Below, one piece after another: positions 32,090 through 44,553 of a stretch of DNA of 44,581 nt; the stretch's first letter is position 1; every line of letters begins with the position of its first letter. The stretch spans positions 1 to 44,581 of the forward strand of contig PRDH01000069.1 in the NCBI GenBank assembly GCA_003345545.1, in the 5' to 3' direction. The position numbers and the translations under genes were made by a program. This DNA is from Candidatus Thorarchaeota archaeon. GTDB taxonomy: Archaea > Asgardarchaeota > Thorarchaeia > Thorarchaeales > Thorarchaeaceae. The notes beneath the pieces were generated by a model. It saw only the letters and a program-made list of their open reading frames with translations. It was not told the origin of the DNA and ran no database searches.

Positions 32090-32130
32090 TGAATGTATCC
32101 ATCCTTTGTCGTAATAGATTCACTTTGTTT

Positions 32131-32219
32131 GTGGTTCAGCCTCAGAGGGCCACATCCCGCGCGGACGTATCCGCCAACACAAAGGAATGGTCTGGTCACG
32201 GTATTCATACCGGACCAGA
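32131..32219 (-). ncRNA. Structured 5' leader of rpl15e (eL15 r-leader-like)
   Basis: Minus strand GCGGA-TACG-TCCGC hairpin, then GGGATGTGGCCCTCTGAGGCTGAACC; upstream hairpin TCTGGTC/GACCAGA plus CGGTAT/ATACCG. Confidence 0.65.
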
Positions 32220-40226: not shown

Positions 40227-42842
40227 ATGGTCGAGCACGCCTCTGAGCGGAAACGGTGGAGGCATCCACGCGAGGGTGATGACCGGCCCGGGGAGCTGCG
40301 GAAGGCCGAGGGCGGTGTCGAGGTTCAGGAGCATGAGGCTGGGAACCGCGAGGACAGTGAAACCCGTGGGAGTGTGGAGCGTCGGCTCGGTGCTGCCATG
40401 CGGGAGCTGGAGGCTCGGGAGGGCAAGGAGGCAACGATCTCTTGGAAACTGAGAAAGGCATTCGATGACCTCGAACGGAGGGAGCAGAGAAAGGAGTCTA
40501 CCGAGGCCAAGCTCAGGGAGGCTCTGGAGAGTCTGAAGGATGATGAGGACAGCGTACAACTCACTCTTGAAGCGGCTGTTCAACTTGGCGGAACGGAGGC
40601 TGCGCGGGACAAGAACGATACGCGAGAGGGTTCTGATGTTTCAGGTCGGCATCAGATTGAAGTATCTGAGGTTGACACTGTACAGAAACGGATTGATGTA
40701 GAGAAAGAGAGTTCTCGTCAATTTGGTTATATTTCCACAAAGAATGAGTTTGATGAAGCACTTGCATGTTATCCCGAATTGGAGTTGCGTAGCAGATTTG
40801 AATCACGGTATGAAGAAGTGGTTAGATACTATGTGGCCTCCGAATCTGGGATTGAAACCTGCAAGCCAGAGCTTGTAATTGAACTTGAGAATCGTGAAGT
40901 CCGAAGGATGTATGAGGAGGCAAACGGAGGACCACCAAATGTACGAATTGAATCAATGAAAGATGTGGACGAACTAATCGAGAAACACTCTGATAACATA
41001 TCTGTATCTGAGAAGCTCTACGAAAATGCTGAAACCTACTTCAGGATCAGAAATGAGAGCGGAAAAAACCAACATCAATTGGCTGCTGAATATGGATTAT
41101 CCCAGAGCAAAATCAGCGATATTCGAAGAGGTGTTGAAACCAAACTAATCAAGACTCTTCGGATGAGAGAAGAAGAATGTACTGTCCATGATTGGGCAGA
41201 CACTCAGAGCCGTGCCCAAACGGAAAAAAACAGCACTGGACAGAGTGAGATCAAAGAACAGCGATTCTCTGTTGAAAGGTCGGCTGTGCAAAAGATTGAA
41301 CCTGAATCAATCAAAGACTCGTTCACTCAGATTCGAGAGTCTAATAGAATTGATAGAAAGAGCATCGAGGATGCCATTGAGAGAATGGTGCAAATCTCTC
41401 AAAACACAGAGAGCAGAGTGAAGATGGCGGATCTTCGACAATCTGGGATAGATTCAGTGAGAATGACCGCAGTCAGGCTAATTATTAATTTGAATACAAT
41501 GGAGATAGAGAAGCATCTCAAAGAACGCCTTAGTGTTGATGAAGTACGCATCGGATTGATTAGTGATAGGCTATATGTCTGGACCCCTAATATGTCACCC
41601 AATGATATGCTCAATGCCTGGCGAACGCAATACTTCTACCTCAACAACCATGACATGGCTAAGATGGTGGATACAGTCGGCACACATATGGACCTAGGTG
41701 ACTCAAGGCGTGAGAAGCTCAGAAATCTGAACGAGTTGATGCATCAGATGGTGCGTGTCGAAACACTATCTGATGCTATCAAGATTGATGGTGACCGTTC
41801 TCGTATGCCCGGTGAGGCTATGCATTTGCAGCGTGATATGCAAGGCATACGAAACAAGGACCTTGAAGGGATAGTCAAGAAGGTCTCTGGAATCAACGGG
41901 CACGGTGGAATAAACAATCCTAAGTTCCCAGAGGGTCACAGATTGGAGGCCCTACGCGCCAGGCTGATTGCCACCTCCCTTAGTGACTGTCATATTCGTA
42001 TTGATGCTTCAGTTGTGGAATATTATGAGCAGAACCTCCAGCGTCTTGAGCGATTAGTAAATCAAGTATTACGTGAATTTGGCGACTTTACTAATGAACC
42101 AGAATACGTGGAAAAGGACAATGTTTACAAACTAAGAATCCAGAGTCCGTATGGTCGGGCTCTAAATGAATGGGGTGTCCCATCTGGGGACAAAGCAATA
42201 CTCAATCCTTGTCTTCCAAATGAAGTCACTAAATGGTTGGCGACATCAATTATCGCATATCATGAAGATATGATTGCACAAGAGGGCCACGTTTCCCCAG
42301 GGCAAGTCAGCTGGAATCGTTCCAACACACTTCATAGTGGTGTTAAATCAGAAAAATATGACTCTGTGAACCGAATCTCGGAAGGGGAAACTAGATTGAT
42401 TCAAAGCAAGGGAAATGATTATGCTGGGAGCCCAAACGGAGCCAAGACACTACTTTGGACGACAATAGAGAATCTAAGAAAGTCGACTGAATCTGAAGAA
42501 ACCGAAGCAGCTAGAGCACTCCATGACACCATTCTAGAGAACCGTAACAAATTGATGGATGATGAGAAGAACATTGCCGAAAAACTAGGAATCGATCTCT
42601 CAATACGTCCGGTACAGGTTACATATTACCCAGAATCCGGAAGAGTTTCCGTAAAATGGGTAACTCGAACATCAAATCCTGAGGCAGTAATTCGATGGGG
42701 ACTGGTTTGTCCACCCAACCATCCTAAAAAAAGAGAGGAGCTTAAGAAGTGGATAATTGCACAGAATCCTGAAAAAGTTAGGAGAATAGCCAGAGAAGTA
42801 GAGGAGGATGGACTTCCTATTCATTCAATATGGAGGGACTAA
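40227..42842 (+). CDS. Large protein: charged repeats, HTH and C-terminal two-motif LAGLIDADG-like endonuclease domain
   Basis: HTH QHQLAAEYGLSQSKISDIRRG; RLIATSLSDCHI and IIAYHEDMIAQEGHV about 95 aa apart with GVPSGDK between. The ORF is clear; the domain call is by eye. Confidence 0.65.
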   Translation: MVEHASERKRWRHPREGDDRPGELRKAEGGVEVQEHEAGNREDSETRGSVERRLGAAMRELEAREGKEATISWKLRKAFDDLERREQRKESTEAKLREALESLKDDEDSVQLTLEAAVQLGGTEAARDKNDTREGSDVSGRHQIEVSEVDTVQKRIDVEKESSRQFGYISTKNEFDEALACYPELELRSRFESRYEEVVRYYVASESGIETCKPELVIELENREVRRMYEEANGGPPNVRIESMKDVDELIEKHSDNISVSEKLYENAETYFRIRNESGKNQHQLAAEYGLSQSKISDIRRGVETKLIKTLRMREEECTVHDWADTQSRAQTEKNSTGQSEIKEQRFSVERSAVQKIEPESIKDSFTQIRESNRIDRKSIEDAIERMVQISQNTESRVKMADLRQSGIDSVRMTAVRLIINLNTMEIEKHLKERLSVDEVRIGLISDRLYVWTPNMSPNDMLNAWRTQYFYLNNHDMAKMVDTVGTHMDLGDSRREKLRNLNELMHQMVRVETLSDAIKIDGDRSRMPGEAMHLQRDMQGIRNKDLEGIVKKVSGINGHGGINNPKFPEGHRLEALRARLIATSLSDCHIRIDASVVEYYEQNLQRLERLVNQVLREFGDFTNEPEYVEKDNVYKLRIQSPYGRALNEWGVPSGDKAILNPCLPNEVTKWLATSIIAYHEDMIAQEGHVSPGQVSWNRSNTLHSGVKSEKYDSVNRISEGETRLIQSKGNDYAGSPNGAKTLLWTTIENLRKSTESEETEAARALHDTILENRNKLMDDEKNIAEKLGIDLSIRPVQVTYYPESGRVSVKWVTRTSNPEAVIRWGLVCPPNHPKKREELKKWIIAQNPEKVRRIAREVEEDGLPIHSIWRD

Positions 42843-42847
42843 TATCT

Positions 42848-43642
42848 ATGAGCCATGATGTTGAAAATATAGTCGAAAACGTAATGGAAATATTCCTAGA
42901 ACTAAACAGGGCAATAATTCCATTAGAAGTCGTTATTGAGAAACTCTCGAACGACTTTGTAATCAAAGAAATCGAAGAAGCCATAGAGTATGCACAGGAG
43001 CGATTTCAGGTTGACAAGGTCCTCGACTATCCCTCTAATGAATGGAGTTCCTATGCTGGATATCCCCTTTGGCATTTGCTGAAACTTACTCCTGAAGAGG
43101 CTGCTAATCTTCAGAATCTGAAACCCGTAGATCGGGCGCTGCTGCGGCTCTTGAAGAATCAAAACACTGCTAAGCGCTTTGGTCAGATGAAATCTGATGA
43201 TGCAAGGGTTCTCTTGCGTGAACAAGGCTTTACAAATGGAGAAACAGAATTTCTATGGATTGAAGATGTTGTAGATAATCATTATGAATATGAAGACGGA
43301 AAGAATATTGAGTGGTGTCGCTTGATTCCCGAGAACGAGAAGACTGAGGAATACAAGAAAGCAGAAGAAGAGATACAGAAGGAGTTTGATAGAAAGGAAG
43401 CCTTCCGAATGTACATCGCAGACATTCATGACCTTGCTGACTTGATATTGAAAGCTGTGAGAGCAGCTCCAGAGGGCATATCCAAAAAAGACATCATCGT
43501 ACAGCTGTTCAAAGCCCCAACAAAGTATATCGAAGAGGCTTTTGAAATCGCAGCAGAAGAGAAAGAGATACTACCAGTCACACTCGCTAATGGGGAAGAG
43601 GGCTATCGCATCAACACTCATTTTGATGATGAGGATTGGTAA
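42848..43642 (+). CDS. Acidic hypothetical protein, probable tandem winged-helix domains
   Basis: Very E/D-rich; starts 5 bp after the upstream stop, with a GGAGGG RBS. Confidence 0.75.
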   Translation: MSHDVENIVENVMEIFLELNRAIIPLEVVIEKLSNDFVIKEIEEAIEYAQERFQVDKVLDYPSNEWSSYAGYPLWHLLKLTPEEAANLQNLKPVDRALLRLLKNQNTAKRFGQMKSDDARVLLREQGFTNGETEFLWIEDVVDNHYEYEDGKNIEWCRLIPENEKTEEYKKAEEEIQKEFDRKEAFRMYIADIHDLADLILKAVRAAPEGISKKDIIVQLFKAPTKYIEEAFEIAAEEKEILPVTLANGEEGYRINTHFDDEDW

Positions 43643-43664
43643 GGCAATATTAACTATGATTAAG

Positions 43665-43803
43665 TGGTAGCGGGTAGTGGATTTTTTGGCCGAATCATGG
43701 AAGTCATGATTCGCGAACCACCGGTCTCAGGGTTATGAGCCCTGCGGGATAGGCTTCGCCCATGGGCGGAGAATCCGCTCTAGACTGGCTTCCCCAACCC
43801 GCT
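43665..43803 (-). tRNA. Initiator tRNA-Met (CAT) with two 30-nt introns (D-loop and T-loop) and encoded CCA
   Basis: Acceptor AGCGGGT/ACCCGCT (A1:U72), D-stem GGGA/TCCC, anticodon arm CAGGG-CTCATAA-CCCTG (3 G:C pairs), T-stem GGTGG/CCACT, ACCA end; 79 nt after removing 43755-43784 and 43685-43714. Confidence 0.92.
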
Positions 43804-43918
43804 TTACTTAAACCATTGTTTGAGCAAACGCAAGTGTGTGGCCCAGAAGGACCTCTACCGGCGTTGCTTAGACGGGGAACGGCTGTGGCGAGTATTAAAG
43901 TTATTCGTAGGGCAGGTC

Positions 43919-43945
43919 TGTAGACACTCTTATCAGGCTGCAGAG
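43919..43945 (+). repeat. 27-bp direct repeat, copy 1
   Basis: TGTAGACACTCTTATCAGGCTGCAGAG. Confidence 0.85.
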
Positions 43946-43959
43946 CATAGACATGGTGA

Positions 43960-44553
43960 GTGGAGATGGGAGATTCGAGGTTACTCACACGGTTCCGCGA
44001 GTTCTGCATGGCCTATAGGGCCAAGTATGCTTTCGAAGGTGTTGTCGAGGATCTACAGTCATTGAAGCTTGTTGGGCCAGAGCGCCTCCCCAGGGGTATG
44101 TTGGTTCGTGGTACGGTGGGTCCAAGATTTGTTCAATTCGAGTCTGAGCGAATGCCTCCTGTGACCATCGGAGATACGGTCATAGTAGTGGGACTGGATG
44201 GATGGCGAGGCGAGAACAGTGTTCTTCCCGCAGTACTTCTCAATCCAACAGAAAGATATGCATGGTTCTTCGGAGACCTTCGGCATAGAATGACCTGTAA
44301 CATGGCACTCTGGAACACATCTGTGATTTTTGCTGTTGCTTTTGGTATATTCTTGATAGCGAAGCAGATTCCGCCGCTACGAGAGATCTGGAGCTATGTT
44401 CTTTCCTTGCTGTTCCTTATAGTAGCTTTCTTCGCCGAACCGTTTGTTCTGAAATACAACGAACGACCTAGATTGTATTACTGTGATGAGAAGACATGGC
44501 ATGCACTCACTGCTGAGCTAGCAGAGAGATTTGGCATTAAGGCTTCAGTATGA
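43960..44553 (+). CDS. Hypothetical membrane protein (beta-rich N-domain, two TM)
   Basis: 197-aa ORF with GGTGA RBS and two hydrophobic helices. Confidence 0.75.
   Translation: MEMGDSRLLTRFREFCMAYRAKYAFEGVVEDLQSLKLVGPERLPRGMLVRGTVGPRFVQFESERMPPVTIGDTVIVVGLDGWRGENSVLPAVLLNPTERYAWFFGDLRHRMTCNMALWNTSVIFAVAFGIFLIAKQIPPLREIWSYVLSLLFLIVAFFAEPFVLKYNERPRLYYCDEKTWHALTAELAERFGIKASV

Follow-up and report, generated by a model that had tools for sequence, protein, structure and literature searches.

Multiple introns at non-canonical sites of tRNA genes have been described in the Thermoproteales (Sugahara 2008 and Fujishima 2010, as cited in PMC4033280 and PMC4090602), which the initial annotation of the locus studied here regarded as the best-documented multi-intron case. 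They no longer stand alone, and Asgard archaea are now described as the most intron-rich (PMC11291895; bioRxiv 10.64898/2026.10.13.758758). In Atabeyarchaeia and Freyarchaeia, 92-95% of the tRNA genes are interrupted (Valentin-Alvarado et al. 2024, PMC11291895). A census of Asgard tRNA genes (bioRxiv 10.64898/2026.10.13.758758) reported repeated gains of introns and found two EndA paralogues to be usual; the standard annotator misses approximately 30% of the inserts in its three focal Asgard families, and the D-arm, with motifs weaker than those of the T-arm, accounts for half of the distinct inserts that were missed. An (alpha-beta)2 EndA with an L1 loop was identified in Asgard archaea including Thorarchaeota, and L1-loop EndA was linked to the cleavage of relaxed motifs (Kaneta et al. 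2018, PMC5829648). Heavily interrupted Asgard tRNA genes and the Asgard type of EndA are already published, and no new mechanism is described here.

This study analyzed a 44,581-nt stretch of DNA (the window) from a Candidatus Thorarchaeota archaeon, an Asgard genome designated G000 in the orthologue comparison. The results, which derive from sequence analysis, suggest with a probability of approximately 0.9 that the minus strand of this window carries a functional initiator tRNA-Met gene spliced at two 30-nt EndA-type introns. The gene and its relatives resemble the published Asgard cases (Atabeyarchaeia and Freyarchaeia/Jordiarchaeia) in having short D- and T-arm BHB introns, several per gene, in the weaker motifs of the D-arm compared with the T-arm, in being missed by gene finders, in a two-paralogue EndA, and in the differences in individual introns between closely related genomes. 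However, the Thorarchaeota genus examined here is not among the focal families, and the term "Thor" is absent from the main text of the preprint (bioRxiv 10.64898/2026.10.13.758758). Moreover, the interrupted gene is that of the initiator tRNA, which neither Asgard paper singles out, and its introns are approximately 30 nt long, whereas the published Asgard median is 22-23 nt. Heavy multi-site tRNA interruption is thereby extended to another Asgard lineage.

As the citing papers describe them, the Thermoproteales share with this genus up to three introns per tRNA gene, D- and T-arm sites, relaxed BHB motifs, and an (alpha-beta)2 EndA with the Crenarchaea-specific (L1) loop. In the same accounts, related introns recur across the tRNA genes of the Thermoproteales and are read as transposition, whereas the present introns, from a different phylum, have no paralogous copies elsewhere in the genome. 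Thermofilum pendens carries a permuted tRNA-iMet (Chan 2011, cited in PMC4090602); in that summary, as in the present locus, the essential initiator gene is not exempt from EndA-dependent disruption. The Thermofilum pendens gene is nevertheless circularly permuted, whereas the Thorarchaeota gene is collinear with two introns.

Gene layout and junction placement

The initial annotation had proposed that this region yields an initiator tRNA only when two inserts are removed, and every element that it described was found in place (Table 1). ARAGORN folded the in-silico spliced 79-mer as tRNA-Met(CAT). The cloverleaf comprised a 7-bp acceptor stem with A1:U72 as its first pair, a 4-bp D-stem (G10-A13/U22-C25, hence G11:C24), an anticodon stem with three consecutive G:C pairs (G29-G31:C39-C41), an 11-nt D-loop with G18G19, and the T-loop TTCAAAT. 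Archaeal initiator tRNA-Met is marked by A1:U72, by G:C pairs at 29-31:39-41, and by G11:C24, and all of these marks were present in the spliced sequence. The other CAT tRNA of the genome, on contig C16, exhibited arm patterns unlike those of the initiator. The anticodon arm was uninterrupted, with no insert at 37/38 in the G000 gene, as had been claimed.

Table 1. Positions in the window of the initiator tRNA-Met gene, its parts, and its upstream region
Feature	Position	Strand	Details
Initiator tRNA-Met(CAT) gene, complete	43665..43803	minus	139 nt with 2 introns; 79 nt spliced
Exon 1	43803-43785	minus	tRNA positions 1-18: acceptor 5' strand, D-stem 5' strand, D-loop to G18
Intron 1 (D-loop, 18/19)	43784-43755	minus	30 nt, relaxed BHB
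Exon 2	43754-43715	minus	positions 19-56, whole anticodon arm
Anticodon CAT (in exon 2)	43737-43735	minus	
Intron 2 (T-loop, 56/57)	43714-43685	minus	30 nt, relaxed BHB (HBh'-like)
Exon 3	43684-43665	minus	positions 57-76: T-loop remainder, T-stem 3' strand, acceptor 3' strand, A73, CCA
Encoded CCA	43667-43665	minus	
Promoter-like box with TATA-like CTTTAATA	43890..43910	minus	~100 nt upstream of mature 5' end
Long leader between box and tRNA 5' end	43804..43889	minus	~59-nt insertion

A 101-aa ORF on the minus strand (43704-44009), which shares sequence with the tRNA and lacks a Pfam match, was taken as spurious. The neighboring ORFs at 42830-43642 and 43960-44553 had no Pfam match.

We searched the 139-nt sequence against 40 related genomes and extracted the genes from the matches. 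Complete orthologues were recovered from 17 other species of the genus, giving 18 genes with that of G000. The orthologue in G001 was 99% identical across all 139 nt, and two genomes, G021 (L014) and G006 (L015), carried intronless 79-nt orthologues. The first 48 nt of the intronless gene equal exon 1, which is identical to the first 19 nt of L014, joined to 29 nt from the start of exon 2, and the first mismatch is one variable-loop base. Apart from this base and compensated T-stem pairs, the G000 exons equal the intronless orthologues, whose T-loop is TTCAAAT. The junctions proposed in the initial annotation, AGCCAG^GCCTA in the D-loop and GGTTC^AAATCC in the T-loop, are exactly the sequences that L014 and L015 carry without interruption.

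The inserts were also placed without any splicing motif, by global alignment of each orthologue to the intronless gene. This alignment located the G000 inserts at 18/19 and 56/57, with 30 nt each, so that the exon and intron borders and both lengths were borne out. The D-loop junction, which had previously been only a conjecture, is fixed because the motif-free alignment gives 18/19. Removing the inserts reduced all 18 genes to 79-nt mature sequences, which differ from one another only in compensated acceptor-, anticodon-, and T-stem pairs, in position 57, and in one variable-loop base. As judged from these alignments, the match between the inserts and the junctions of the intronless orthologues is far beyond chance, and the comparison establishes the gene structure and its junctions at the level of sequence.

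Structures of the two introns

The relaxed BHB proposed for the T-loop intron (TGGT/GCCA, TC^G/AA^A, and a 9-bp stem) was confirmed. Its central helix pairs T51-T54 with GCCA through three Watson-Crick pairs and one G-U pair, the bulges TC^G and AA^A are 3 nt each and in register, and the inner stem comprises 9 perfect base pairs closed by a 5-nt loop. The motif is classed as relaxed (HBh'-like) rather than strict because the outer exon helix next to the 3' bulge is absent. Most of this structure also emerged from the unconstrained MFE fold of the precursor, which contained the 9-bp stem, the TC^G bulge, and all four central pairs except T51-A, which is likewise available.

Homologous 30-nt T-loop introns were identified in G001, G010, and G017. 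They have a common apical CATGAYTTCCATG and three different, compensated lower stems, with the 9-bp stem kept, and in G001 one pair of the intron 2 stem is broken by a G to A change. In all three distinct genes with this T-loop intron (four genomes), T-stem positions 51-53 read TGG; this triplet pairs with the CC(A) of the intron and is needed for the central helix. In contrast, the genes without this intron carry GATG, GAAG, GAGG, or AATG at positions 50-53. The association of TGG with the intron may partly reflect shared ancestry.

An alternative to the 56/57 junction is a cut one nucleotide later, at 57/58, which would leave G57 in place of A57 in a mature T-loop of sequence TTCGAAT. A 30-nt excision moved by one base still yields a legal T-loop, TTCGAAT occurs in the intron-free T-loops of G015 and G024, and the homologous intron of G010 and G017, read by hand, fits the canonical BHB geometry at 57/58. 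In G000, however, the 9-bp stem directly abuts the GCCA segment, a 4-bp helix flanked by two 3-nt bulges can form only with the cut at 56/57, and the motif-free alignment also places the intron there. We therefore regard the later cut as improbable, and the mature T-loop of G000 would carry A57 rather than G57.

The D-loop intron has a weaker motif. Its central helix was confirmed as having only 3 bp (G15-C, C16-G, and C17-G) together with an A-G mismatch, its bulges AG^T and AA^G are in register, and its hairpin consists of an interrupted inner helix and a 5-bp apical stem. In a strict hBHBh' test, the intron fitted the relaxed class, and an outer exon helix was not clearly present. Ten other complete congeneric genes and two truncated copies carry the intron at this site, and the 3-bp helix is conserved in 11 orthologous sequences, the mismatch beside it being A-G or A-A.

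Across the 11 distinct sequences of the D-loop intron, 89.5% of the cells were paired, whereas controls with the pairing partner slid by 1-3 columns were 31-55% paired. Four pairs of the hairpin exhibited two-sided changes, and the covariation score was reached by none of 500 shuffles. Conservation and covariation of the intron are established by these comparisons, and they indicate that selection maintains the D-loop hairpin, which argues against junk or a decaying pseudogene.

The MFE fold of the whole precursor recovered the BHB of the T-loop intron but not that of the D-loop intron. The predicted energies were -42.3 kcal/mol for the hand-built double-BHB structure, -50.1 kcal/mol for the constrained fold, and -55.5 kcal/mol for the MFE fold, and the BHB conformer lies 5-13 kcal/mol above the last of these. 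This gap weighs little because the same folding program also misses the cloverleaf of the spliced tRNA.

Detection, copy number, and processing enzymes

The initial annotation had suggested that standard scans may miss the gene, and this held for the two tools used. The unspliced gene was not found by ARAGORN, with the intron mode on or off, or by the Rfam tRNA covariance model, either at the gathering threshold or at E <= 10; at E 10, the region 43500-44000 returned no tRNA and only two chance-level matches (L13 leader and sR20). As a control, the intronless sister-species orthologue was detected by both ARAGORN and the Rfam tRNA model (57.4 bits against RF00005). Because this essential gene is invisible to two common finders, automated annotation of G000 and of related Thorarchaeota may leave the initiator tRNA unlisted. 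Inspection in the published Asgard census is limited to genes detected by tRNAscan-SE (bioRxiv 10.64898/2026.10.13.758758), and the census would therefore also miss genes this heavily disrupted.

Only 23 tRNA candidates in the genome scored above the Rfam cut-off, only 10 of its tRNA genes are intronless, and many of the genome-wide ARAGORN intron calls are 28-31 nt. The proposal that translation initiation may depend on a broad-specificity EndA can stand, but with only 10 intronless tRNA genes such dependence is unremarkable. At C12:8226-8316 and C38:5729-5837, ARAGORN returned a tRNA-SeC(TCA) call and an intron-bearing tRNA-Pyl(CTA) call, the latter probably an artefact of the intron mode. 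The use of selenocysteine would agree with what has been reported for Asgard archaea.

The assembly is a metagenome-assembled draft of 82 contigs and 2.69 Mb, 93% complete with approximately 5.4% contamination. Patterns of the anticodon arm, the 5' end, and the 3' end, each allowing up to two mismatches, revealed no second initiator gene in it, and the intronless copy for which a search had been proposed was thus not found. The tRNA-Met gene is apparently the sole initiator gene of the genome, as judged from a draft of this completeness.

This copy number bears on the possibility that the locus is a decaying pseudogene with unspliced inserts and that a working initiator tRNA is encoded on unassembled DNA. 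The incompleteness of the assembly leaves room for such a gene, and truncated copies of the initiator gene do occur in the congeners G004 and G009. Against this explanation, the exons equal the intronless orthologues apart from the few differences given above, the gene is matched at 99% identity in G001, its promoter box is retained, compensatory change maintains the intron structure, and the assembly contains no second copy or fragment. We consider a pseudogene very improbable. An assembly or binning artefact, in which a chimeric contig mimics insertions, might be suspected in a contaminated metagenomic draft of many contigs but is scarcely credible, given that the 139-nt architecture was independently assembled in G001 and that, besides G000, 10 complete genes carry the D-loop intron at its site and three genomes carry the T-loop intron.

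A functional, spliced gene would require an endonuclease of broad specificity, as the initial annotation had pointed out, and such an enzyme appears to be encoded. The genome contains two EndA paralogues (188 aa at C12:16931-17497 and 212 aa at C16:41139-41777), each with N- and C-terminal EndA domains. The best matches of the 188-aa alpha protein were the crenarchaeal catalytic subunits 3p1z_B, 2zyz_B, and 2cv8_A, and its end-to-end alignments to the alpha subunits of Aeropyrum pernix, Pyrobaculum aerophilum, and Sulfolobus tokodaii had E values from 1.5e-41, for 3p1z_B, to 1.9e-33. The catalytic triad (Tyr126, His134, and Lys165) is present, and so is an ungapped counterpart of the Lys-bearing specific loop (L1/CSL-like, GQPVGIRKPKS). 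The triad and the loop, in which the protein resembles the EndA of Aeropyrum pernix and Pyrobaculum aerophilum (PDB 3p1z, 3ajv, and 2zyz), are invariant in six Thorarchaeota sequences, and relatives of the protein in Candidatus Thorarchaeota are 65-93% identical.

The 212-aa paralogue has Ala in place of the catalytic His, as expected for a structural beta subunit, and an acidic N-terminal extension. It is closest to proteins of Methanopyrus kandleri and M. jannaschii, not to crenarchaeal beta subunits. The subunit typing that had been proposed as a check therefore came out as (alpha-beta)2, with the triad in alpha and the His missing in beta, and an EndA of this type is predicted to cut relaxed motifs. 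The genome also encodes an RtcB ligase (587 bits), and the presence of the genes for both enzymes is established. The EndA beta gene (C16:41139-41777) lies within a cluster of tRNA calls (G000:C16:39353-52675) comprising Arg, Ile (doubtful), Ser, elongator Met, Leu, and Glu.

From these features, we infer that splicing occurs and that processing may proceed in the following order. Transcription from the conserved promoter-like box approximately 100 nt upstream would produce a precursor in which a long leader precedes the exons and the two 30-nt introns. The 3' segments of the introns would pair with exon bases (G15-C17 and T51-T54, respectively) to form the central helices of the relaxed BHB motifs, while the remainder of each intron folds as a hairpin. 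The (alpha-beta)2 EndA would then cut each 3-nt bulge between its second and third nucleotides, and joining of the exons by RtcB would restore G18G19 and the TTCAAAT T-loop. RNase P would remove the leader, the CCA being already encoded in the gene.

Intron and leader variation in the genus

The initiator genes of the 18 congeneric genomes carry zero to three introns at five or six sites (17/17a, 18/19, 37/38, 56/57 or 57/58, and 58-60). Only G000 and G001 among these 18 combine D-loop and T-loop introns without a 37/38 intron, whereas three introns are present in G009, G010 (L004), G012, and G014, whose genes measure 164-176 nt. The inserts are 20-22, 30-31, or 32-33 nt long, with the 37/38 introns divided between the shortest and the longest of these classes (20-22 and 32-33 nt). 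The equal length of exactly 30 nt for both introns of G000 is refuted as a rule by this 20-33 nt range across the genus. G009, G012, and G014 (L008, L011, and L013) contain a 33-nt T-loop intron at 58-60. Such a series of zero to three introns in one gene from 18 close genomes provides a compact dataset for the gain, loss, and shift of BHB introns; the arrival of introns is named as an open problem by recent literature.

The D-loop intron lies at 18/19 in most of the genomes and at 17/17a in G005 (L016), in which it is 31 nt long and has a perfect 4-bp central helix (GAAG/CTTC). This 17/17a intron is significantly similar to the 18/19 introns of G009, G010, and G011 (permutation fractions of 0.0005-0.003). 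The site of the T-loop intron likewise varies, being 56/57 in G000 and G001 and 57/58 in G010 and G017 according to the BHB geometry, as read by hand. One tentative reading, based on geometry and short alignments and given less than even odds here, is that the initiator gene represents a turnover series of BHB introns, in which homologous introns may have slid by 1-2 nt, keeping their length, through compensating indels that re-pair them with the exon. Our literature search, which lay outside the key Thermoproteales papers, returned no description of sliding in archaeal tRNA introns.

We also considered a mobile repeated intron. A genome-wide search for paralogous intron copies in tRNA-like contexts (up to 3 mismatches per 17-nt core and up to 8 per 30 nt) returned none, and mobility is unsupported, neither intron having a paralogous copy elsewhere in the genome.

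Two truncated initiator copies were found in the genus, L012 (G004:C188) and L025 (G009:C50), the latter approximately 2.1 kb upstream of the intact L008. Both retain the promoter as well as the introns of the D-loop and of 37/38 and end within the T-arm, after position 53 in L012 and at approximately position 58 in L025. The break in L025 is at or adjoining the site of the T-loop intron in the intact G009 copy; elements may integrate in the T-arm, bringing a new 5' part of the gene. In other Asgard families, the initiator genes of G030 and G040 (L017 and L018) have a T-loop intron, and that of G035 (L024) contains two or more inserts, including one in the D-arm and another ahead of the anticodon loop.

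The upstream region was compared using the window segment 43804-43925 (minus strand) together with L003, L005, L007, L008, L025, and L027. The promoter-like box, a putative promoter, lies at -41/-42 in the short orthologues and at -97 to -102 in the long ones, which include G000. The difference looks like an insertion of approximately 59 nt that duplicates the 5' end of the gene: in the sister species, the first 11-12 nt of the insertion copy the tRNA 5' end, and this copy has decayed in G000. This copy is followed in the long form by a GGGTCTTAAGACCC palindrome and approximately 47 nt of conserved sequence ending in GTTTAAGTAAA.

Elsewhere in the window, positions 32128-32174 (minus strand) matched the Rfam eL15-Euryarchaeota ribosomal-protein leader with 47.9 bits, outside the namesake taxon of that family.
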